From Candidatus Sulfotelmatobacter sp. (GTDB taxonomy: Bacteria > Acidobacteriota > Terriglobia > Terriglobales > Acidobacteriaceae), in the NCBI GenBank assembly GCA_035710825.1, contig DASTCU010000219.1:2134-66133 (forward strand): DNA of 64,000 bases, in the 5' to 3' direction. This document shows positions 683 to 11,315 of the stretch, in pieces; position 1 is the first letter of the stretch, and each line of letters starts with the position of its first letter. The position numbers and the translations under genes were made by a program. Under the pieces are notes generated by a model. The model searched no databases. It was not told the DNA's origin and worked only from the letters and a program-made list of their open reading frames with translations.

Positions 683-1897
683 ATGCCCGCTACCTCAACC
701 GCAAAGACCTCTGCTTCTGCTGGTCCTCTGACGCTGGCGGCATACGTGTCGTTCGTGCCAATCGGGATCGCCACCGTACTTCTCGGCCCGATGCTGCCTA
801 CGCTTTCGGCGAGATGGTCGCTGAACTATGCGCAGGCGGGCGCACTCTTTACTGCCCAGTACCTGGCATCTACGTTTGCGGTCGCGCTTTCGGGAGTGCT
901 GGCTTCCTGTTGGGGATTTCGATTTCCCATGAAGGCTGGCCTGTGGCTGGTCGCAGCCGGCCTGGCGCTGTTGCTCGCTGGGCCAGAGTGGCTAGGCATC
1001 GCCTGCATTGCAGCATACGGGGCGGGCCTGGGGCTGGCAGTTCCCGCAGCGAATCTAATGGTTGCGGCGGCGAATCCGGAGCGACGAAGCGCGACGCTGA
1101 ACCTGCTCAATTTCTTCTGGAGTGCGGGCGCAGTAGCCTGTCCGTTTCTGGTGGCCGCGGCGGCGAAGAGCCATCAGATTCCTCTCTTTCTGGGATTCGC
1201 TTCGGTGTTTTGCGCCGTGGTGGCGATTGGAATTGCGGTGATGCCCGCCCGTATTGTCGAACTGGTGCCGCATCGCCAAGTTTCCCCGCCGATCGTTCCG
1301 CTGGTTCGGAAAAAGTTGAACGCATTTCTCATTCTCGGCGTGCTATTTCTCGTGTACGTGGGCACCGAAAATGCTTTTGGGCAATGGGTAGCATCGTTTT
1401 CGAAGAGCCTCGGCAGCATGACCCTTGCAGTAGCCGTAATGACTCCGTCGTTCTTCTATGCTGCGCTGATGATCGGAAGATGGCTAGCCCCAGCACTGCT
1501 GCGTACGATGCATGAAGTAAAGCTGGTTCAGGCAGGCTTGCTGCTTGCCTGTGCAGGGACCACAGGGCTGCTGTTTTCACAGGGACTGTCTGCAGTCGTG
1601 GCCAGCGCTTGTGCCACAGGACTGGGCCTCGCCGCTGTGTATCCCATCACGATTTCGTTGTTGTCCCACGAATTTGGAACGGCGTCATCGCGGATTGGCT
1701 CGGTTATGTTCGTGCTATCCAATGTCGGAGGAGGCTTGTTTCCGTGGATTGTGGGGCTGTCATCGAACCGGTTCGGCACGCTGAAAGCCGGACTATTGGT
1801 GCCACTACTCGGGTGCGTGGCGATGTACGTTCTTTATCTACGCGAATGGCGTGGAATGGCAGTTGAAGAATCCTTGGAAAGCAATACCACTATCTAA
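683..1897 (+). CDS. MFS transporter
   Basis: 404-aa ORF made almost entirely of Gly/Ala/Leu-rich hydrophobic helices (about 12), with a short charged central loop. It directly follows the LacI-type gene. Confidence 0.8.
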   Translation: MPATSTAKTSASAGPLTLAAYVSFVPIGIATVLLGPMLPTLSARWSLNYAQAGALFTAQYLASTFAVALSGVLASCWGFRFPMKAGLWLVAAGLALLLAGPEWLGIACIAAYGAGLGLAVPAANLMVAAANPERRSATLNLLNFFWSAGAVACPFLVAAAAKSHQIPLFLGFASVFCAVVAIGIAVMPARIVELVPHRQVSPPIVPLVRKKLNAFLILGVLFLVYVGTENAFGQWVASFSKSLGSMTLAVAVMTPSFFYAALMIGRWLAPALLRTMHEVKLVQAGLLLACAGTTGLLFSQGLSAVVASACATGLGLAAVYPITISLLSHEFGTASSRIGSVMFVLSNVGGGLFPWIVGLSSNRFGTLKAGLLVPLLGCVAMYVLYLREWRGMAVEESLESNTTI

Positions 1898-3048
1898 GTC
1901 CGAAGCAACCGGGCCGTAAGGCGAGAGAGTCGAACCAAGCGATACAGCGGGGACAACAACGCGGGAAGTTGGATTGCCTCCCACTCGCTGGGACCGGGCG
2001 TGAAGATAAGGCGCATGAGAAAGCGCAAGCGGTCGGGTTTGGCCTCTCTGAGACGAAGCATCAGGCGGAAATATTCGAAAGATTCGACGTTGAACAGCGT
2101 CTCGCGGGTAATACTGGGCTCAATCTCCTCGGCAAATGCTTGGGCGGCGGCATCTTGAGGTAGGCTGGCTTCTCCTGCCGCAGGAATCGGAGCGCCGAGC
2201 ATGCGATTTGCCAGGAGCATGCCGACGCGCAAGATACGCACGACTCGCAAGTTTTTGGCTTGTTCTGCAATCAAGCCCCAGTTTAGCTTCGGCAGATTCA
2301 TGAGTCGGGCGAGGTCGCAAAGCCAGATCAGGCGTCCCCAAACGTGTTTGGCGGCGTGCAGCGAAAGAATGATGTACAGATCTTCAGCGCACGGCGTCTG
2401 CATGATACGGCCTGCGACCGGGACCGTCACCGCACGACGGAACAGTCCATCCATGTCATAGTCAGCGGCATAAAATCGCGGCTGGATGGCCCACTGAAGT
2501 TCCAGAAGATTCGGGCCTGCAATTCCATCGAAGGCGCATTCGTATCCTGATTTCAGATAAGCCCGTTCCTGCGCTTCCGGCACCGGGGCATGTGGAGTGT
2601 AGCCAAGTTCCTGAACTGCATCGCGGATACGCGAAAAATCGGAAGCGCGAATCAAGATGTCAATATCCCCGGCGTGGCGCAGTGCGATGTCTCCATAGAC
2701 AGTCTGCGCCAGGGCTAGGCCCTTATAAGCCAGCACCTTCAACCCCAGGCTAGCCAAGAGATCGTAAATTCGGATCAACTCCAGCGAGAGAAGCATTGCC
2801 TTGTGCAGGTTCGTTTGATAATTCTGCTCGAGGGCGCGCATCTCGTCAGCGGGAATGAATTCAGCTATGCTCGACAGGCGTTGATACAGAAGTGGCTGAA
2901 CGCCGTGGTGATCGGCGAAATCGAAGAGAATTCTCCAGTTAACGGGGCTCGCGAACAGATCCACCAAATTCTGCTGGCTGGCGACTTCGGAGCAAGCCGC
3001 GCGCAACAAAGACCACTCTGTCTCGTGTGCGGAACTTGTTCGGTCCAT
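1894..3048 (-). CDS. NTP_transf_5-type (uncharacterised) nucleotidyltransferase family protein
   Basis: 384 aa with the pol-beta-like NTase signature HAGDIDILI. The layout resembles the nucleotidyltransferases found beside PqqD and HPr-kinase-like genes in peptide maturation clusters. It is the last gene of the 5994->1894 operon. Confidence 0.75.
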   Translation of the reverse strand: MDRTSSAHETEWSLLRAACSEVASQQNLVDLFASPVNWRILFDFADHHGVQPLLYQRLSSIAEFIPADEMRALEQNYQTNLHKAMLLSLELIRIYDLLASLGLKVLAYKGLALAQTVYGDIALRHAGDIDILIRASDFSRIRDAVQELGYTPHAPVPEAQERAYLKSGYECAFDGIAGPNLLELQWAIQPRFYAADYDMDGLFRRAVTVPVAGRIMQTPCAEDLYIILSLHAAKHVWGRLIWLCDLARLMNLPKLNWGLIAEQAKNLRVVRILRVGMLLANRMLGAPIPAAGEASLPQDAAAQAFAEEIEPSITRETLFNVESFEYFRLMLRLREAKPDRLRFLMRLIFTPGPSEWEAIQLPALLSPLYRLVRLSRLTARLLRT

Positions 3049-3075
3049 CGGATCGGTTGGAGCGCAGGAGCCAGA

Positions 3076-4200
3076 TTACGCGTTTGCCCCGGCACCCGGA
3101 AAGCTGGCCGGCACTGGAATAGGCCGGATCTGTACGAGATTGGCTGCACCGCGTTTTTTCGCCAGCATGTTAGCCGAGGGAACCCCGGTTTTCGCAAAAG
3201 ACTTTTCGCAATCTGCCGACGATGGGCCGCGCATGTTGCCTTCCGTGTAGGCAAGGCCGGGGCAGCGTTCGCAGGAAGAGATATGGCTACACGAGGTACA
3301 GGTCGTGAGATCTTTCAGCCGGATTGAGCGCACTTCCTTCATGCGATCGGAGTGACGCCAGATATCAATGAAGCGCGATTTGCGAACATTGCCGGTGGGC
3401 AGGGGAAACTGGACGCAAGGGAAAACGTCTCCGTAAGGCGAAACGTAGCAGGTGGTATGACCGGCGCTGCAGGGAATGTGTTCCAATACGTCTTCTTCGG
3501 CGGCTGCAACCGTGCAGGATTCCTCAGCCTCACTGACAAAGTTTTCAGTGCGAAAGACCTGCTGCAGCGAACTGCGGTCAATGCGGAGATCGAGCACCGA
3601 GCGATTTCCGTCCATCATGGGAGTAATGGTTGGATCAAGCGTGCTCTGTACACCCATATCCTCGGCAAGCGCTCGCACTCCCGGATAATCCTGGAGATTC
3701 TGGACCATCAGCACGTTCGCGAGAACAACCCGCAGTCCTTGGGACTTTAGGAAGCGTGCCGCATTCAACGAACGCTGGAGCGAGCCCGGCACCAGAGTGA
3801 TGGCATCGTGGATTTCGGGACGGTGGGAATAAATGCTGATCTGGACGGACTCGACACCGAGATCACGAATCCGAGCAGCTTCCTGCTCCCGAATCAGAAT
3901 CGCGTTGGTTTTTAGTTTTACGCAGAAGGTCAGCTGCCGGCGGGCATATTCAAGAATCTCGAAGAAATCTTTGCGCAGCATGATCTCGCCGCCGCTGAGC
4001 GTAAGGATGAAAACGCCGGCTTCGGCCATCTCTTCGAGCAGGTGCTTGATCTCGGCGGTGGTCATCTCGCCGTAGTCCTGATGGTCGAGATAACAGTGCA
4101 CGCACCGCTCGTTACAGCGGTACGTGAGATCCAATTGGACACTCAGCGGAATGTTTAGACTTTCCGCTTTGTCCGTCATCTCCTCAAGCAGATTGCTCAT
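3076..4200 (-). CDS. radical SAM/SPASM domain peptide-maturase-like protein
   Basis: 374 aa. CNERCVHC (CxxxCxxC) lies near the N-terminus. The C-terminus has Cys-rich auxiliary-cluster motifs CSAGHTTCYVSPYGDVFPC and CTSCSHISSCERCPG. Its ATG overlaps the upstream stop (ATGA). Confidence 0.9.
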   Translation of the reverse strand: MSNLLEEMTDKAESLNIPLSVQLDLTYRCNERCVHCYLDHQDYGEMTTAEIKHLLEEMAEAGVFILTLSGGEIMLRKDFFEILEYARRQLTFCVKLKTNAILIREQEAARIRDLGVESVQISIYSHRPEIHDAITLVPGSLQRSLNAARFLKSQGLRVVLANVLMVQNLQDYPGVRALAEDMGVQSTLDPTITPMMDGNRSVLDLRIDRSSLQQVFRTENFVSEAEESCTVAAAEEDVLEHIPCSAGHTTCYVSPYGDVFPCVQFPLPTGNVRKSRFIDIWRHSDRMKEVRSIRLKDLTTCTSCSHISSCERCPGLAYTEGNMRGPSSADCEKSFAKTGVPSANMLAKKRGAANLVQIRPIPVPASFPGAGANA

Positions 4201-4514
4201 CGCGATGCTCCGGGAACTGCATTCGCCTGCAGGATGGGCTGCTCAGAGATCTGGATAATGGAATGACCGGCTAGATCGCGGAGGAGCGTTTCTGCGTCTT
4301 GCAGCGCCTCGGCCAGCTCGACGTCAAATTCGCCGCAAATCTTCTGCTGCACAATTTCATCGAGGGGGGTGATGCCATCGGCAGCCTGCCACAATATGGT
4401 GGCCGTCTTACTGAGCGTAAACAGAGTGGAATCGCGTCCCGACATGATCATCATTTCGCCACCAACGCTGCGCGCAGCCACTCGCGGACTGCGAGCTACG
4501 TAAAGCTTGCTCAT
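4197..4514 (-). CDS. PqqD-family protein (RiPP recognition element type peptide chaperone)
   Basis: About 105 aa with the PqqD-like pattern LFTLSKTATILWQAADGITPLDEIVQQKICGEFDV...DAETLLRDLAGHSII. The preferred start, ATG 4514, overlaps the upstream stop as ATGA; the track ORF extends to 4529. Confidence 0.8.
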   Translation of the reverse strand: MSKLYVARSPRVAARSVGGEMMIMSGRDSTLFTLSKTATILWQAADGITPLDEIVQQKICGEFDVELAEALQDAETLLRDLAGHSIIQISEQPILQANAVPGASR

Positions 4515-5335
4515 CGGATCAACTCCCAAACCCGGACATCGGGCACAAAAGTCAATCGGGAGATGGGCACCCGGCTGACGAATTCGAATGCAGAATGGAA
4601 GATTGCCTGTACCAACTCGTCATCGTTGGCAAAAAAAAGCACGTTCGAGAGCAGCGATCGGACCGCGTCAGCTGGTGCGACGGGATCGATTCGGTTCTCT
4701 TGTCCTTTAGCCAGAAGATACAGATGGGAAATGGGCGCAGAAACATTCTCCCCCAGCTTCGCCAACTCTCCTGCGAAAGGCGTGCCAAAGGCAACGTAGC
4801 CGCCCGGCTGTCGTCGCACATAAGAAATTTCGTCCGTGAGAAGAGTAACGTCGGGCGGCGCCAGACGGGAGATCGTTGTCTTTCCGGCCTCGGATGCTCC
4901 CGCAAAAACGAAAGCCTTGCCGTCACGAATGAGACTGGCCGAGTGGAGAAGGAAACCTCCCCGCCTGGCCAGCAAGATCGAATGCAAGATGCGGAGCACC
5001 GCATCCACGGAATATGGACTGTCCGTGTGCCGAATCCAGCCGCGTCCGCTAGCTGGCTCCCATTCGCTAAAAAAATCCCCGCGTTCCAAAGTCCAGCGGC
5101 CTTCTTGGCAGGCTACATGCACCTGCGCATCTGTCGGGCCGGACTCCGGCGCCGCAAGCTCAACTGTGAGATCTATTTCGGAGTGCTCGATCGAGCTGAC
5201 GAAGCCCCCATACATGCGATGCAGCAAGTTGAAGAGCACTCGGTCCGATGTCTGAACGCGAACGGGCATCTCCCCAATTTCAATGGTGAGGCTGAGGCGA
5301 TCGACTTCGGCGATTAGCTCTGGCAACGGACCCAC
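4511..5335 (-). CDS. HPr-kinase-C-terminal-domain-like P-loop protein
   Basis: 274 aa. Walker A GASEAGKTT is preceded by GGFLLHSASL and followed by LLTDE, as in the HPr kinase catalytic domain. The N-terminal ~120 aa are unassigned. Confidence 0.65.
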   Translation of the reverse strand: MGPLPELIAEVDRLSLTIEIGEMPVRVQTSDRVLFNLLHRMYGGFVSSIEHSEIDLTVELAAPESGPTDAQVHVACQEGRWTLERGDFFSEWEPASGRGWIRHTDSPYSVDAVLRILHSILLARRGGFLLHSASLIRDGKAFVFAGASEAGKTTISRLAPPDVTLLTDEISYVRRQPGGYVAFGTPFAGELAKLGENVSAPISHLYLLAKGQENRIDPVAPADAVRSLLSNVLFFANDDELVQAIFHSAFEFVSRVPISRLTFVPDVRVWELIR

Positions 5336-5359
5336 CCCTCATTTCTTTGATGCCGGAAC

Positions 5360-5830
5360 TTACGAGATCGCGGTCCAGCTACGCACGGTCAAAAGGATGC
5401 GAGCCGAGAGCTGTGAATGGCGCACTAAAGCAGCAATGGCGCGTTCGAAGAACGTCCGGCTACTCCGGAGTACCGTGCACTTTTCATTCTTCACGATCGA
5501 GGAAACTCTGCCCAGCAATTCCTGAGAATGAACCACGGGATCGGGCTGAGGGCTGGCGTCACCGCGCGTCAGGAATCTTGAGTCGTCAAGTTTTTTCACG
5601 ATGCGGTGAGCACAAAGCCACCGGTTACGGGCAAACAAAATAACGTCGCCTTCTCTTACTCCACTGGTAGTGGCCCTGTCGACAAGAAGGGTATCGCCGG
5701 GCCAAATAGCTGGCAGCATGCTACAGCCCGAGACCTGCAAGCTCAGGGTACCGCATGAGCGCAAAATCTCCTCAGCAAGATCACACTGCACGCCTTGGAC
5801 AGCGTTCTTTTGATCGAATGAATCCATCAT
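5360..5830 (-). CDS. S24/S26-superfamily serine peptidase (LexA/signal-peptidase-like), soluble
   Basis: It has the Ser motif GCSMLPAIWPGDTLLVD and the downstream motif GDVILFARNRWLCAHRIVKK. There is no N-terminal TM helix. I set the start to ATG 5830, which overlaps the stop of the small upstream ORF (ATGA); the track ORF runs to 5884. Confidence 0.7.
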   Translation of the reverse strand: MMDSFDQKNAVQGVQCDLAEEILRSCGTLSLQVSGCSMLPAIWPGDTLLVDRATTSGVREGDVILFARNRWLCAHRIVKKLDDSRFLTRGDASPQPDPVVHSQELLGRVSSIVKNEKCTVLRSSRTFFERAIAALVRHSQLSARILLTVRSWTAIS

Positions 5831-5994
5831 GAGGCACTGGGGCGGTGACTGCATCCACGGGATTCGGAGCCGATCTTTACGCAATGAAGAGCAGCCGTCA
5901 CGAAAACCTGCTCAAAACGGAAGGTCGGCTTTTCATAGGGTTTCTTAGGCTCTGGATTGGGTGGAGCATCGGAAATTGTATTGTCTGTAGGCAT
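5827..5994 (-). CDS. candidate RiPP precursor peptide (55 aa, below the ORF-track size cutoff)
   Basis: Hand translation of the minus strand gives MPTDNTISDAPPNPEPKKPYEKPTFRFEQVFVTAALHCVKIGSESRGCSHRPSAS. It fills the otherwise empty 5885-6003 gap and its stop overlaps the peptidase ATG. YEKPTF resembles the YxxPxL leader motif bound by PqqD-type RREs. There is no clear Shine-Dalgarno. Confidence 0.5.
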   Translation of the reverse strand: MPTDNTISDAPPNPEPKKPYEKPTFRFEQVFVTAALHCVKIGSESRGCSHRPSAS

Positions 5995-6003
5995 AGGAGA
6001 ACC

Positions 6004-8205
6004 TTATTTTAAACTCGCCTGGGAGGCCTGCATGGCACAACCACCAGGCCCGCCGCTTAAACACGATTGATTTGCCAGAGTGCTGAAGTATACCTGAGAA
6101 GCTCCCGCTAGAGTGCCGGAAGGGACCACGTTATCCATGATAATGCTGCTCGCTCCACCGCTGGCTTGCAAACCATTGACGGACATCGTGCCGCCGTTGA
6201 TCCAGGTCACCGTGCCGTCCACGGTGGTTCCACCTGGCGTAGTAGACCATGCCGGGGTGGTTGCCCCTGATGTTCCGGCTGTGCCCACAATTTCGACGTT
6301 GCCTTTCGAGTCTAGAATGAGAGTGGTGGAGGTGTACGCGGTGCTCGCGGCCCAAGCTGCTAGGGGCACGGCTGTAAGTGTCCCCTGATCCAGCCACGTC
6401 ACAGAGCCGTCGCTGACACTCGATCCTGCCGTGTTAGTCCAAGTGGGCGCGGTCGCAGCAGAAGTCCCGGCCTTGGTGACCACTTCAATGTGGAGCTTCG
6501 GGCTCAGGATCTGGTGGCCAACGACATAGGAATTGCTCGCCTGCCAGGGGGTCACGATAAAGCTCTCGACACACCCTTTGGAGGCGCAGGCCGCCGTCCG
6601 TCCGTGATTCGCAGGACTGAAAAAAATTCGTTCTTCCAGTCCTCCGGCAGCGTTCGGGTTCGAGACATCGGTAACTGTCGAACAAGAGTCTGTAGAGCCT
6701 GTCGTAGTTACCGTGCTCATGCTGGTGCCGGTGGCGGGAATGACCCCTGCGGCAATTGCAATTTGGTACATCGTTGGATTTGCGGCGGTATTGCCACAAA
6801 CATAGAGGTTGCCCGTAGCGTTTTTGGAAGCATAATACGCATTATCGAAAGCACCGGCATACAGGAAGTTCGGAGTTGCACTGCTGACACCGACTTGAGT
6901 TTCCGTTCCGGAACTGCCGGATGTAAACGTCGTACCCAACTGATACACGGCAGCGCATCCGTTCCCCCCACAACCGCCGCTGCCGTCATTCGACGAGAAG
7001 ACGTAAACTTTCTGGGAGGTGCTATCGACGATCGGTCCGTCTGCACTGAGCCCGGCGCCATGATCTATTTGGTGAGACACCGTGGCCGTACCGGTTGTGG
7101 CATTAACGCGTTCCAGAAATCCACCAGCATCGCCGACGAAAACATTCTGAGTCACATTGTCGAGAATAGGACTGGTAAGAGCGGTGTGATTACTAACATT
7201 CGCCTGAACCGGCCAAGGAGATCCCACTTCTGCTGGTGTTCCGTTTGTGAAGAATGGACTATATTTATGCAACAATCCTAGATTGTCGCCGACATAAGCT
7301 GTGTCGGTATCGAAGTCATACATGATTGAGGACGTCGTGTCGTTGGTCTGGGCTCCTACACCAGTGGCGCTGGTGCGCAGGAAGAATGCGGTCATGCAAG
7401 GAGCTGTGCAAGTGGGATAGGTCGCTGCGGTTTTGTAGGTAGGTGCGATTGGACTGGCAAGCGTTCCATTGTTCCCCTTCCACTTCAGCAAGACCACGTA
7501 TCCGTGAGAACCATCGGTCTGAACAAAGGCGATCTGTGAGCCGTCCAGTGAGATAACCGGGGAAGTCTTAACTGTTCCCGCAATGTTCCCCGGAAGTGTG
7601 GTGTTATATGCCCAATAGAGCGTAGGCACCGCACCAAACGCGGAGCATCCCGAATACAGATTGTCGTAGGCGAGGATGCTGGGCTTGGTGGTCGAGCTTA
7701 GCAGGCCGGTATTGAAGACCACAAAATCCGGACTCGCGACATTACTACAGGTCGCCTTGGTAATACTGAAAGAATATTTCAGAGGATAATTGCCTGCCCC
7801 GACGGTGGCACCGGAGCCCATGTTTTGCGACCAAAGGCCGCTACTGGAGGGCGCGGAAGAATCGTCCGAAGTGGCAAGGTAAGATCGCGAATCGGGATTC
7901 GAAACGTCCTCCTCCGGGGAAAGCACACGAACCATGTTGCGGCGGACAAACTGCTGCCAGTACCGCGTATTGTGGATCACGCGTGTAACCTGCTCGGGGG
8001 TGGTGGGCTGTGAAAAGATAACGTGGCCGTGACTCCAATCCGTAGGCAGGCCGTGCTCATAAGGCCTAGCAGCTTGGAGACTCAGAATCCAGCCCAACGT
8101 GACCAGCGCTACTAAGGCTCCACCAATCCTGACGAATCGCGCGGCAGTACCATTCATTATTCTCGACTCCATGGTTCGCAAGGTGCAGAGATTTGCGGGC
8201 AGCAC
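6004..8205 (-). CDS. secreted or membrane-anchored protein of unknown function (Ser/Thr/Gly-rich, beta-propeller-like middle part, repeated C-terminal modules)
   Basis: 733-aa ORF (GTG start) with an N-terminal hydrophobic anchor FVRIGGALVALVTLGWILSL. Alternative ATG starts lie at 8172 and 8157. I recognised no catalytic motif. Confidence 0.6.
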   Translation of the reverse strand: MLPANLCTLRTMESRIMNGTAARFVRIGGALVALVTLGWILSLQAARPYEHGLPTDWSHGHVIFSQPTTPEQVTRVIHNTRYWQQFVRRNMVRVLSPEEDVSNPDSRSYLATSDDSSAPSSSGLWSQNMGSGATVGAGNYPLKYSFSITKATCSNVASPDFVVFNTGLLSSTTKPSILAYDNLYSGCSAFGAVPTLYWAYNTTLPGNIAGTVKTSPVISLDGSQIAFVQTDGSHGYVVLLKWKGNNGTLASPIAPTYKTAATYPTCTAPCMTAFFLRTSATGVGAQTNDTTSSIMYDFDTDTAYVGDNLGLLHKYSPFFTNGTPAEVGSPWPVQANVSNHTALTSPILDNVTQNVFVGDAGGFLERVNATTGTATVSHQIDHGAGLSADGPIVDSTSQKVYVFSSNDGSGGCGGNGCAAVYQLGTTFTSGSSGTETQVGVSSATPNFLYAGAFDNAYYASKNATGNLYVCGNTAANPTMYQIAIAAGVIPATGTSMSTVTTTGSTDSCSTVTDVSNPNAAGGLEERIFFSPANHGRTAACASKGCVESFIVTPWQASNSYVVGHQILSPKLHIEVVTKAGTSAATAPTWTNTAGSSVSDGSVTWLDQGTLTAVPLAAWAASTAYTSTTLILDSKGNVEIVGTAGTSGATTPAWSTTPGGTTVDGTVTWINGGTMSVNGLQASGGASSIIMDNVVPSGTLAGASQVYFSTLANQSCLSGGPGGCAMQASQASLK
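6190..6552 (-). repeat. two tandem ~60-aa protein repeats within the 6004..8205 gene
   Basis: TPWQASNSYVVGHQILSPKLHIEVVTKAGTSAATAPTWTNTAGSSVSDGSVTWLDQG aligns with AAWAASTAYTSTTLILDSKGNVEIVGTAGTSGATTPAWSTTPGGTTVDGTVTWINGG. Confidence 0.7.
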
Positions 8206-8627
8206 TCAAGGAACATTCCCGCCGTGCATACGTCCAAACTTTTGGAACGAGCCAGTCTTCCGCAACTTATAAAATCGATCTGTCGCCGATGGCAGCTGGA
8301 CGCGGATTCCATCGATTGGCTGGAATGGGCGAGATTCTACTCTTTCTTGGGAGAGCAAGCAAACTAGTTTTGCGGCAAGTCCCGCGACTGGCGGCCAATC
8401 CAGTGAACGCAGCCAGCCTTTTGTCGTCCCTTTATGCAAATCTGGCGAGCCGAGGGTCACGGCGACGGACGAAAGACGAGCTGTCTGGTGTACTTTCAAT
8501 GCTGAAAAATTAAACACCGTTCGCGAATTCGGTCGCACACCGTACAATGGTGAAACCCTTCTGACCGCGACGTCATCAGGACATGGCAAAATTGGGATCG
8601 AGTCCCAGGGAGGCTTAGTAAAACGAT

Positions 8628-11315
8628 TTGGACGCGTACGAGGTAGCTGGGGATATGGATCAAGGCGTGCGTGCGAGTGAAGTCAATAACGTGCTCTCGC
8701 TGGAGGAAATATCAAACCTTGCGGCGGAAGGCGGTCAATCGGCGGAAACGCTGATGAACGTCGTCGCGCTCATCGCCAAACGGTTTCATACGGATGTTTG
8801 TTCGGCATATTTGCTGGAACCGGATCGGGCCAATCTTGTGTTGGCCGCCACCGTCGGGCTGCGCCGTGAATGCGTGGGCAATCTGCGGATGGCGGTGCAC
8901 GAGGGCCTGACCGGGCTCGTCGCTGAGCAGGTACAGCCGGTTTCTGTGAGCCAGGTCAAGAATCATCCGCGGTTTAAATATTTTCGTGACGCCGGCGAAG
9001 ATGCTTATCAGTCATTCCTGGGCGTGCCCCTGGTCGATCGCGGAATCCTGCAGGGTGTTCTCGTCGTGCAAACTGTGGAAGCTCGCGTCTTCAGTGCGGA
9101 AGATATCCGCATGCTGACCGAAGCCGCCACCCAGGTTGCGCCCGTAGTCAGCGAGGCGCGCACGTTAGACCGCTTCATCGCGCCACTGCAGGAACGATTG
9201 TGGGCCCTGGCGCGCAATTTGTGGTGGAGCTGGGACCATAACGCGCAGAGCCTTTTCCTCGATCTGGATCCCGCGCGCTGGAGCGAACTGAACCACAATC
9301 CCGTGGCTCTGCTGACTGAAATTCCGCTGGCCAAGCTGGAAACCCGAGCTAACGAACTGATGCTGCATAGCCGCGTGAACTATGCCTACCGGCGCATGCT
9401 GGAATACCTCGAAGATGACCATACCTGGGGAACTCGGCACGCGGGTGTCCTGCGGCCGCATCCGGTGGCGTATTTTTCGGCAGAGTTTGGGTTGCATGAA
9501 TCCCTTCCAGTGTATTCCGGCGGACTGGGCGTGTTGGCGGGCGATCACATCAAGAGCGCTTCTGATCTCGACATTCCGCTAGTCGGCATAGGACTGTTCT
9601 ACGGACAAGGTTATTTCCGGCAGCGCCTTGATCAGGGGGGGTGGCAGCACGAGGAGTACCTCGAGACTGACGTCAATCAACTCCCCATGGAAGTGGCCAT
9701 CGGAAAAGATGGCCGGCCTGTCGTGGTAGAAATTGAGACCCGCAGCGGCCTGCTTCAGGCAAAAGTCTGGCGGGTGAAGGTGGGCCGGCGTGACCTGCTG
9801 CTGCTCGACTCGGACGTGGAAGGCAATGCGCCGGAAGATCGCGAGCTTACGTCGCGCTTGTACGGCGGAGATTTGCGCATCCGAATACGCCAGGAGTTGC
9901 TGCTGGGCGTTGGGGGCCTCCGGGCTCTGAAGGCTCTGGGAATCACTCCGGGTGTGCTTCACCTTAACGAAGGTCACAGCGGCTTTGCAGTGCTGGAAGC
10001 CATTCGCATGCGGATGGAAGATGAAGGAATCGGGTTTGACGCCGCCGTGCCGCGAGTATCGCGCGAGGTGGTTTTCACGACGCACACTCCGGTTCCAGCC
10101 GGACACGATCGATTCGACGCCAAGCTCGTCGAAGAGCACATCGGTCCGCTGCGTGAGGAATTGGGGCTTTCGCAGGAAAGCTTGCAGGGCCTCGGCCGCG
10201 AGAACACGAACAACTCCGAAGAAACGTTTTGCATGACGGTACTGGCGCTGCGGCTCTCGCGGCGGGCGAATGCGGTGTCTGCGCTGCATGGCGAAGTTTC
10301 GCGCGCCATGTGGACCGGGCTCTTTCGCGGCAAGCCTGAAGACGACGTCCCTATCGGGCACATCACCAACGGCGTCCACGTTCCTTCGTGGCTCGCGCCG
10401 CAGATGTTCCGTCTCTACGATCGTCATCTTGGAACCGATTGGCACCAGCGAGGCAGCGAGGCGAAGATCTGGCTGGGTATCGAGAATGTCGACGACGGCG
10501 AACTTTGGGAGACTCACCTCAATTTGAAGTCGCAACTGATCGAGTTCGTTCGCAAGCGAGCGGTGTCGCAGGCACAGCGGCGTGGGGAATCCCGCGAGGT
10601 ATTGCAGCGTTTGGAGCGGGTCCTCAGCCGGGACGCCTTAACCATTGGGTTCGCACGGCGCTTTGCAACTTACAAGCGCGCCAATCTCATTCTCAGCGAC
10701 ATCGAGCGACTGGCGTCGATGGTAAACGATCCCAACCGTCCCGTCCAATTCGTGTTTGCCGGCAAGGCGCATCCGCTCGATGAGCCGGGCAAGCGCGTGC
10801 TGCAGCAGATTGCGGAGTTGATGCGCGATCCCAAGTTCCGCGAGAAATTTGTCTTTGTCGAGGACTACGACATCAATGTCGGGCGGCATTTCGTGCAGGG
10901 CGTGGATGTATGGCTCAACAATCCGCGTCGCCCGCTCGAAGCTTCGGGCACGAGCGGCCAGAAAGTCGTACTGAACGGAGGACTGAATCTTTCCATTCTC
11001 GACGGTTGGTGGGCCGAGGCTTACGACGGCGTGAATGGCTTCGCTATTGGAACCGGGAAAACCCATTCCAACATGAGCGTTCACGATACGCGCGATGGCG
11101 AAGATCTGTTGCGGACTCTGCGCGACGAAGTGATTCCGCTTTACTACCAGCGCGATCGCGATGGGCTGCCCCGAGGCTGGATTAAGCGCATGAAGCGAAC
11201 CATCCGCACGCTGGGTTGGCGCTTCAATGCAGACCGCATGGTGATGGACTACACGCAGCAGTGTTATTTGCCCGCTGCGGGTGGAACTTCGAGCGAGATG
11301 CGATCCGGCTCGTAG
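8628..11315 (+). CDS. alpha-glucan phosphorylase (GT35 family) with N-terminal GAF domain
   Basis: Phosphorylase motifs: AYFSAEFGLHESLPVYSGGLGVLAGDHIKSASDL, TTHTPVPAGHD, FARRFATYKRANL, and the PLP-lysine region EASGTSGQKVVLNGG. The first ~170 aa look GAF-like (SAYLLEPDRANLVLAATVGL...FLGVPLVDRGILQGVLVVQ). The start is TTG 8628 or ATG 8655. Confidence 0.9.
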   Translation: MDAYEVAGDMDQGVRASEVNNVLSLEEISNLAAEGGQSAETLMNVVALIAKRFHTDVCSAYLLEPDRANLVLAATVGLRRECVGNLRMAVHEGLTGLVAEQVQPVSVSQVKNHPRFKYFRDAGEDAYQSFLGVPLVDRGILQGVLVVQTVEARVFSAEDIRMLTEAATQVAPVVSEARTLDRFIAPLQERLWALARNLWWSWDHNAQSLFLDLDPARWSELNHNPVALLTEIPLAKLETRANELMLHSRVNYAYRRMLEYLEDDHTWGTRHAGVLRPHPVAYFSAEFGLHESLPVYSGGLGVLAGDHIKSASDLDIPLVGIGLFYGQGYFRQRLDQGGWQHEEYLETDVNQLPMEVAIGKDGRPVVVEIETRSGLLQAKVWRVKVGRRDLLLLDSDVEGNAPEDRELTSRLYGGDLRIRIRQELLLGVGGLRALKALGITPGVLHLNEGHSGFAVLEAIRMRMEDEGIGFDAAVPRVSREVVFTTHTPVPAGHDRFDAKLVEEHIGPLREELGLSQESLQGLGRENTNNSEETFCMTVLALRLSRRANAVSALHGEVSRAMWTGLFRGKPEDDVPIGHITNGVHVPSWLAPQMFRLYDRHLGTDWHQRGSEAKIWLGIENVDDGELWETHLNLKSQLIEFVRKRAVSQAQRRGESREVLQRLERVLSRDALTIGFARRFATYKRANLILSDIERLASMVNDPNRPVQFVFAGKAHPLDEPGKRVLQQIAELMRDPKFREKFVFVEDYDINVGRHFVQGVDVWLNNPRRPLEASGTSGQKVVLNGGLNLSILDGWWAEAYDGVNGFAIGTGKTHSNMSVHDTRDGEDLLRTLRDEVIPLYYQRDRDGLPRGWIKRMKRTIRTLGWRFNADRMVMDYTQQCYLPAAGGTSSEMRSGS

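Follow-up and report, generated by a model that had tools for sequence, protein, structure and literature searches.

A conserved 55-residue peptide of Terriglobia as the probable precursor in a radical SAM- and PqqD-dependent maturation operon

Does a short open reading frame (ORF) that lies among the enzyme genes of a tightly packed operon encode the substrate of these enzymes? The question is raised by a 64,000-nucleotide stretch of DNA from Candidatus Sulfotelmatobacter sp. (assembly GCA_035710825.1, contig DASTCU010000219.1, positions 2,134 to 66,133; hereafter the window). Here, an ORF of 55 codons directly precedes a peptidase gene, which is followed by genes for an HPrK-like protein, a PqqD-family protein and a radical S-adenosylmethionine (rSAM) enzyme, and an earlier note on this DNA had proposed that it encodes a precursor peptide. 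Judged by sequence comparison, the ORF is a real protein-coding gene under purifying selection. We further consider it probable (about 0.7) that it encodes the ribosomal precursor of a peptide that is modified post-translationally by the products of the rest of the operon, an interpretation that has come through the tests of conservation and of the peptidase start described below. The gene in question is the following.

5827..5994, minus strand: gene for a 55-aa precursor-like peptide (ATG start, 55 codons, stop codon included)

A single-sequence word-index search returned only the peptide itself. We therefore anchored the comparison on the HPrK-like protein, which has more than 6500 homologues. 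From these we took 80 loci on one-genome-per-species contigs, namely Terriglobia-type metagenome-assembled genomes (MAGs), a few of them with other bin labels, at 59-72% identity. In 74 of the 80 loci, a tblastn search with the peptide found a match at the syntenic site immediately upstream of the peptidase, and in 72 the ORF at this site was intact. Frame damage was seen in two loci, by an in-frame stop in L016 and by reading into the peptidase frame in L062; these damaged peptide genes (L016:5313-5498 and L062:5327-6013) are pseudogenes or MAG assembly errors. The other five frames of the stretch were open in only 2-12 of the 73 syntenic sequences used for the codon analysis. Within the conserved block (KKPY...CGK), differences at codon positions 1, 2 and 3 amounted to 0.14, 0.08 and 0.53, with nonsynonymous differences (pN) of 0.097 and synonymous differences (pS) of 0.78. 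The ratio pN/pS is about 0.12 in this block, and position-3 variation is 4-6 times that of positions 1 and 2 in the peptide frame. Both flanks are much less constrained than the conserved block, with codon-position differences of 0.43/0.36/0.57 in the N-terminal flank (pN 0.40, pS 0.64) and of 0.50/0.51/0.60 in the C-terminal flank (pN 0.50, pS 0.65). The search for a conserved ORF in homologous clusters, which the earlier note had suggested, was thus successful, not only in the 72 anchored loci but also in most loci of a second, less biased set that came from a peptide-anchored scan of metagenome contigs, and the substitutions are of the coding type.

The earlier note had also considered that the peptidase might initiate at 5884, so that the supposed peptide would be its 5' coding end. 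The comparison gave this no support. The peptide stop overlaps the peptidase start as [A/G]TGA (ATG or GTG) in 69 of 72 loci, and no peptidase start upstream of the overlap start is conserved among the 72. Although the peptidase frame is open for at least 27 codons upstream in many loci, it closes within 13 codons upstream of the overlap start in 18 of the 69. For these reasons we reject the idea that the region belongs to the peptidase. Going by the junction in these sequences, the peptide gene is translationally coupled to the peptidase gene.

The single-sequence search by itself could be mistaken for evidence of an orphan ORF, which was ruled out by synteny and by a profile search that uncovered a large family. 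A profile built from 36 syntenic peptides matches 3067 proteins (90%-identity clusters) at E<=0.01, nearly all of them 55-57 aa long, and an exhaustive hidden Markov model search of 50%-identity representatives found 476 clusters. These thousands of homologues, from Acidobacteria of soil, were independently predicted by gene callers. Among the best 120 of the 3067 matches, none has a Pfam domain and the sole source name is "hypothetical protein". No Pfam-A 2025 or NCBIfam 20.0 model matched the window peptide or 32 diverse members at E<=1, except for three single-member model matches at E 0.16-0.19 among the 32.

In the window itself, the hand translation in the earlier note proved identical to the sequence that we obtained, MPTDNTISDAPPNPEPKKPYEKPTFRFEQVFVTAALHCVKIGSESRGCSHRPSAS. 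The ATG lies 9 nt past the TAA stop of the 6004..8205 gene (read from the sequence), which encodes a protein of 733 aa, and the ATGA overlap with the peptidase start, described before, is present as peptide TGA and peptidase ATG at 5830..5827. The remaining operon spacing consists of a 24-nt gap to the next gene, then two overlaps and then a 27-nt gap. One copy of the gene was found in the window, in agreement with the earlier count. The third codon positions are indeed more AT-rich than in neighbouring genes (third-position GC content, GC3, 0.48 vs 0.59-0.65 in six neighbour genes); the family as a whole does not share this feature, the homologue mean GC3 being 0.64. The statement that there is no Shine-Dalgarno sequence was too strong, since TAAGGT is present at 6006..6001 with 7 nt between GG and ATG. 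Among 71 homologues, positions -14 to -9 upstream of the ATG are 38-63% G, and 67 carry a Shine-Dalgarno-like 4-mer upstream of the peptide ATG. A scan of 1700..8700 for promoters and terminators gave nothing above shuffled expectation.

6001..6006, minus strand: TAAGGT, weakly Shine-Dalgarno-like, which overlaps the stop codon of the 733-aa gene upstream

What kind of peptide does the gene encode? We counted the family anatomy over 267 representatives. A variable N-terminus is followed by the pattern [KR][KR]P-Y-x-K-P-x-F-R-x-E-x-V-F-[VE]-T-x-A-L-[STA]-C-G-K, in which 100% of the representatives share Y, P, the second F, A and the first Cys, 99.6% the K after the Cys and 99% the E. The motif YxxPxF, pointed out in the earlier note for its likeness to the YxxPxL leader motif that PqqD-type RREs (RiPP recognition elements) bind, turned out to be a family invariant (Y 100%, P 100%, F 92%), as did the two-Cys feature, exactly two Cys being present in 253/267. 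Their spacing is 9 in 223/264, usually with x-x-x-x-x-T-Q-x-x between them, and the modal inter-Cys sequence is CGK[IV]xxTQxxC. From the second Cys to the end there are 7 residues in 229/264, usually x-x-N-x-K-x-S. The window peptide fits the modal Cys spacing. The terminal Ser, likewise singled out before, is the last residue in 262/267 representatives. It is retained in three loci without the stop/start overlap, so the overlap alone does not explain it. Two aspects had been missed: within the family it is the Pro/Lys-rich N-terminus that varies, and the C-terminal "core" is of fixed length and semi-conserved, not hypervariable. AlphaFold2 with a multiple sequence alignment predicted no secondary structure for the peptide (predicted template modelling score 0.15), as expected for a peptide substrate. 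The parts of the window peptide are as follows.

5887..5994, minus strand: putative leader, residues 1-36, with a variable N-terminus (1-16) and the conserved block KKPYEKPxFRxExVF[V/E]TxAL (17-36)
5920..5937, minus strand: Y20-E-K-P23-T-F25, the predicted PqqD-binding motif, with the same spacing as YxxPxL of lasso leaders
5830..5886, minus strand: putative core, residues 37-55 (HCVKIGSESRGCSHRPSAS), with invariant C38, K40, C48 and S55

The lineage of the window departs from the family at one site. It carries AL[H/K]CVK at residues 36-40 (5875..5889, minus strand), compared to AL[S/T/A]CGK in 94-97% of the family. Close variants (P0395-P0398) keep AL[H/K]CVK, with P0395 found on 48 contigs. 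Since such variants on dozens of contigs keep it, we regard it as a maintained lineage trait at the putative cleavage site and not as decay.

Downstream of the peptide gene, Pfam and NCBIfam scans confirmed the gene set around the ORF that had been read from the sequence before (Peptidase_S24, PqqD, Radical_SAM with SPASM, NTP_transf_5 and an HPrK-like P-loop protein).

5360..5830, minus strand: signal-peptidase-I-like (S24/S26) peptidase, candidate leader peptidase (PF00717 1.3e-6; TIGR02228 sigpep_I_arch 1.2e-12)
4511..5335, minus strand: HPrK-like/PEPCK-like P-loop protein, candidate peptide kinase (PF27840, precomputed)
4197..4529, minus strand: PqqD-family protein, candidate leader-binding RiPP recognition element (RRE; RiPP, ribosomally made peptide with post-translational modifications) (PF05402 3.1e-10)
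3076..4200, minus strand: rSAM/SPASM enzyme (PF04055 3.3e-22; PF13186 8e-11; CxxxCxxC and SPASM Cys visible)
1894..3048, minus strand: NTP_transf_5 nucleotidyltransferase-like protein, accessory gene (PF14907 5.2e-56)

The peptidase reaches 48 bits against TIGR02228, just under the cut-off of 51.85. Its invariant residues among 135 homologues are G35, S37, M38 and P40, H75 and R76, G90 and D91, and D97, which form the boxes GxSMxP, HR[IV] and GDxxxxxD. In the same alignment no position is Lys in at least 95%, and K79 is not invariant. This is the Ser-His pattern of the signal peptidases of the endoplasmic reticulum/archaeal (SipW/Sec11) type. The sequence shows no N-terminal membrane anchor, which makes the enzyme a candidate soluble leader peptidase. 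It also weakly matches the family of proteases that mature nickel superoxide dismutase (E 0.0012).

The HPrK-like protein matches the NCBIfam models ScmC (2e-7), HprK_rel_A (1.9e-5) and HprK_rel_B (2e-4), all far below cut-off. Its invariant residues are H131, G151-K152-T153 (P-loop) and D168-E169. A profile search of its alignment against the PDB gave no significant match, and its AlphaFold model is poor (mean local confidence, pLDDT, 56); Foldseek on that model returned phosphoenolpyruvate (PEP) carboxykinase at 7e-5 and HPrK/P at E 0.56, which speaks weakly for a P-loop fold of the PEPCK type. The PqqD protein weakly matches the lasso and GeoRSP PqqD families. For the rSAM enzyme, the best NCBIfam match is MftC (3e-41, 142 bits vs a cut-off of 265), and the nearest solved structures are SkfB (2.9e-15), PqqE, SuiB and CteB, which are RiPP maturases.

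How could these proteins act on the peptide? In phosphorylated lasso systems, HPrK-like kinases (PadeK, ThcoK, SyanK, PsmK) act on the precursor before leader removal and phosphorylate its conserved C-terminal Ser, and PsmN, an NTP-transferase homologue, adds hexoses to that phosphoserine (PMC9266682). In lasso leaders, the motif YxxPxL, to which PqqD-like B1 proteins respond, takes up positions -17 to -12, and the kinase BsfK has been characterised together with the PqqD-like RRE protein BsfB1 (PMC10368454). In the peptide studied here, Y20-x-x-P23-x-F25 sits 17-18 residues before C38. Because the motif lies at the lasso register, the leader probably comprises residues 1-36/37 and the core the last 18-19 residues; we infer the leader/core boundary from this register, with Y at -17 (PMC10368454). 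By analogy, the PqqD protein would be the recognition element and bind the leader via YxxPxF. The rSAM/SPASM enzyme would modify the core, with one or two thioether crosslinks from C38/C48 as the likeliest outcome, or another Cys-dependent radical reaction. Most plausibly it uses the two invariant Cys, thioether formation being the commonest precedent and SkfB the nearest structure, and no sequence feature fixes the chemistry. The HPrK-like protein may phosphorylate the hydroxyl of Ser55, as PadeK, ThcoK and PsmK do in lasso systems, and NTP_transf_5, where present, could decorate the phosphoserine as PsmN does. Such a paeninodin-type phosphorylation fits because the terminal Ser is kept and H131, K152 and D168-E169 are invariant, although the assignment as a kinase is weak. 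The soluble signal-peptidase-like enzyme (Ser37/His75) would remove the leader near A35-L36-x37, and the predicted 18-19-residue product in the window is (H)CVKIGSESRGCSHRPSAS.

In most loci the peptide gene lies beside these genes. The HPrK-like, PqqD and rSAM genes are present in 80/80 anchored loci, and the peptide, S24 peptidase, HPrK-like, PqqD and rSAM genes are all present in 74/80 (tblastn). In the peptide-anchored set, 20 of the 28 loci with at least 3.5 kb downstream carry S24, HPrK-like, PqqD and rSAM genes together. In one metagenome locus (L105:9001-10560), NTP_transf_5 comes immediately after the peptide and a truncated match to the peptidase; the HPrK-like, PqqD and rSAM genes seem to have been deleted there.

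Among known systems, the closest working analogy would be a hybrid. Its leader, RRE, kinase and nucleotidyltransferase would follow the logic of phosphorylated lasso peptides, but an rSAM/SPASM enzyme would stand where these have the cyclase, and a signal-peptidase-like enzyme where they have B2. The phosphorylated lasso systems (paeninodin PadeA/K, ThcoA/K, pseudomycoidin PsmA/K/N, BsfA/K) share with our locus the motif Y-x-x-P-x-(L/F), placed 17-18 residues away from the putative core, a PqqD-type RRE as a discrete protein, a P-loop protein that is HPrK-like, a homologue of NTP_transf_5 and a conserved C-terminal Ser in the precursor (PMC9266682, PMC10368454). Unlike them, the operon has neither an Asn-synthetase-like cyclase (C) nor a B2 transglutaminase-like cysteine protease (Pfam and NCBIfam, seven operon proteins); an rSAM/SPASM enzyme and a signal-peptidase-like protease are found instead. 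The peptide has two invariant Cys, without a conserved Asp/Glu at core positions 7-9 or between the Cys. A lasso peptide is ruled out, since the genes for C and B2 are missing and no acidic ring residue is conserved.

Sactipeptide and ranthipeptide systems (SkfB, AlbA, CteB) are alike in the rSAM/SPASM maturase with an RRE and in the core Cys, SkfB being the nearest solved structure. They differ in that here the RRE is a separate protein, the Cys are just two, the core is of fixed length and semi-conserved, and a kinase-like protein, a nucleotidyltransferase and an S26-like peptidase are added; the family scores are far below the NCBIfam cut-offs. Mycofactocin (MftA/B/C) and pyrroloquinoline quinone (PQQ; PqqA/D/E) systems likewise combine a discrete PqqD-family chaperone with an rSAM/SPASM enzyme, with MftC as best match (3e-41), and their precursors are conserved along the C-terminal part. 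However, the present peptide ends in K/S-x-S, without the C-terminal Gly-Val-Tyr of MftA or the Glu-x3-Tyr of PqqA, the scores are 142 vs 265 for MftC and 102 vs 381 for PqqE, and MftD/E/F or PqqB/C genes are absent. A precursor of mycofactocin or PQQ is hence ruled out by the wrong termini, the sub-cut-off scores and the missing pathway genes.

Quinohemoprotein amine dehydrogenase (QHNDH) maturation, with the gamma subunit QhpC, the rSAM enzyme QhpD, the protease QhpE and the beta-propeller QhpB, may offer another likeness: a small Cys-containing peptide with a leader, an rSAM/SPASM enzyme, a leader-removing serine protease and a periplasmic beta-propeller. In contrast to the QHNDH arrangement, our locus has no haem c subunit, ABC exporter or flavoprotein, and the peptide no Trp for cysteine tryptophylquinone (CTQ). 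Its peptidase is S24/S26-like rather than subtilisin-like, and a kinase-like protein is present. Finally, NCBIfam holds systems defined in silico (SynChlorMet ScmC/E/F, GeoRSP, HprK-related kinase A/B) that also combine an HPrK-like protein, a PqqD homologue and an rSAM/SPASM enzyme. Here, however, the scores are 30.7 vs 125 for ScmC, 105 vs 400 for the GeoRSP rSAM enzyme and 21.8 vs 100 for geo_PqqD. The SynChlorMet, GeoRSP and HprK-related systems are themselves uncharacterised, and none of their peptide models matches this peptide. Literature searches on the gene combination, SynChlorMet/GeoRSP, PYEKP/VFVTTAL, rSAM RiPPs of Acidobacteria and PF14907/PF27840 found no description of this system.

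Terriglobia, which belong to the most abundant bacteria of soil and peat, have hardly been explored for peptide natural products. The present analysis defines a large peptide family without a Pfam or NCBIfam model, which is tied to a maturase set that we did not find described in the literature. This set pairs an rSAM/SPASM enzyme with a discrete RRE, and adds an HPrK-like kinase, a signal-peptidase-like protease that is soluble and, in the majority of clusters, a nucleotidyltransferase. The analysis offers a concrete candidate substrate, a predicted product, and Y20, P23, F25, C38, C48 and S55 as targets for mutation. In its leader and tailoring genes the locus is much like phosphorylated lasso peptide systems, but it has an rSAM enzyme where these have the cyclase, which suggests modular exchange between RiPP classes.

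Several observations weigh against a modified precursor peptide. The C-terminal segment is, across the aligned family, fixed in length and semi-conserved (T-Q before the second Cys, N-x-K-x-S after it), unlike the hypervariable cores of antibiotic RiPPs. The operon contains no exporter or immunity gene. The kinase assignment of the HPrK-like protein is weak, given NCBIfam scores below cut-off, the missing PDB match and the poor model. NTP_transf_5 is absent in 29 of the 90 clusters with enough flank (both locus sets), and inspection without statistics revealed no clear association between the tail type (KxS or SxS) and its presence. The clusters without NTP_transf_5 are mostly more divergent ones (loci L049-L080), in which the terminal Ser is still invariant. 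The cleavage site is a further difficulty. Invariant A35 and a small residue at 37 (94% of the family) fit the -3/-1 rule of signal peptidases, with a cut after A-L-[S/T/A], whereas the window lineage, with its His or Lys at position 37, misfits the small-residue -1 rule. Because of this His/Lys, cleavage may lie either between L36 and x37 (lasso register) or between x37 and C38. Lastly, the peptide gene and the maturases are at times found apart. The peptide gene and the 733-aa gene upstream of it occur as a pair without maturases within 8-9 kb in L081, L082, L119, L129 and L160. Conversely, five maturase clusters (L007, L010, L014, L020, L036) lack both the 733-aa gene and the peptide, with flanking synteny kept. 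Since the pair occurs without maturases and the maturases without the pair, there appear to be two modules, usually side by side.

6004..8205, minus strand: secreted 733-aa protein with a PQQ-like beta-propeller, co-transcribed with the peptide (start uncertain, ATG at 8157 possible)

An ORF of about 700-780 aa (range 579-845) ends 10-161 nt upstream of the peptide in 84 loci, the offset being the start of the tblastn match minus the ORF end. In the peptide-anchored set, 25 of the 28 loci with at least 2.3 kb upstream have a 733-aa match (tblastn), directly upstream in most. On these counts the peptide gene is paired with the 733-aa gene at least as tightly as with the maturases, which the earlier note had missed. 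The 733-aa protein alone has no Pfam match. The profile of its family finds designed PQQ-like propellers (6e-11) and, weakly, BamB, and 11 of 26 members match Beta-prop_ACSF4. Given its signal-like N-terminus and its many conserved Cys, the family is probably extracytoplasmic.

We therefore have to ask whether the peptide, though modified, serves as a cofactor precursor or as a crosslinked small subunit for this co-transcribed secreted beta-propeller protein. The arrangement would then be akin to that of PQQ and its quinoproteins, or to that of QhpC, the gamma subunit in quinohemoprotein amine dehydrogenase. Besides the close pairing, the existence of the pair without adjacent maturases and its joint loss in five loci speak for this view, as do the fixed-length, semi-conserved core, reminiscent of the precursors PqqA and MftA, the mycofactocin maturase as best rSAM family match next to a chaperone of the PqqD family, and the PQQ-like propeller repeats, signal-like N-terminus and conserved Cys of the large protein. 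On the other hand, the peptide has no signal sequence and the operon no exporter, and there is therefore no route to a periplasmic partner. Moreover, 11 of the 74 peptide-bearing anchored loci have no 733-aa tblastn match, five of these with the full 6000 nt upstream. The adjacency may merely reflect operon structure, and the core conserves no Trp, Tyr or Glu of the kind that marks known peptide-derived quinone cofactors. Since its match to an unrelated protein of 1064 aa with TIG and Glyco_hydro_88 domains, the propeller region may also be a generic extracellular domain. Altogether we regard a cofactor or subunit role as the main rival reading, but as unlikely; if true, the peptide would not be an antibiotic-type RiPP, and the system would stand as a new counterpart of PQQ, mycofactocin and QHNDH that is widespread among the Acidobacteria of soil and peat.

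The 1064-aa protein is encoded downstream of an orphan 740-aa/peptide pair (L081:4398-7592, L082:4096-7290) and has 36% identity to part of the window 733-aa protein, a likeness which hints that the domains of the large protein are related to carbohydrate handling. In the window, the operon is divergent from an alpha-glucan phosphorylase-like gene (8206..8627 and 8628..11315, plus strand). The same phosphorylase-like neighbour, in antisense, flanks the clusters without the 733-aa gene and peptide, and synteny is therefore conserved around the deletion.

A modified precursor also has to be compared with a genuine small unmodified protein, such as a regulator, chaperone or assembly factor for its neighbours, with the maturases acting on something else. 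Conservation by itself proves gene status only, and some loci have the peptide without nearby maturases and some vice versa. Still, this seems quite improbable to us: no second ORF in the tightly packed operon is a candidate for the substrate, the invariant residues (RRE motif, Cys residues, terminal Ser) correspond to the known needs of the enzyme families encoded next to it, AlphaFold2 predicts no fold, and the gene is coupled to that of the peptidase. The last alternative, that the stretch is no gene at all and represents a 5' untranslated region with an ORF that arose by chance, or else the first part of a peptidase gene that begins at TTG 5884, could point to the abundance of such ORFs in this region, the low GC3 of the window copy and the often open peptidase frame, yet it is hardly credible and, given the codon-position pattern, the intact frame, the kept overlap start and the many homologues, refuted as far as alignments can tell.

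Length would indeed have been a poor guide, since the first 14 kb of the window hold 126 ORFs of at least 40 aa and an antisense ORF equals the peptide ORF in length, and we consider an ORF of this size as no evidence alone. This antisense ORF, GTG-initiated and of 55 aa, overlaps the peptide gene at 5845..6012 (plus strand). As the reverse-strand frames are open in only 3-12 of the 73 homologues, it is a chance ORF.

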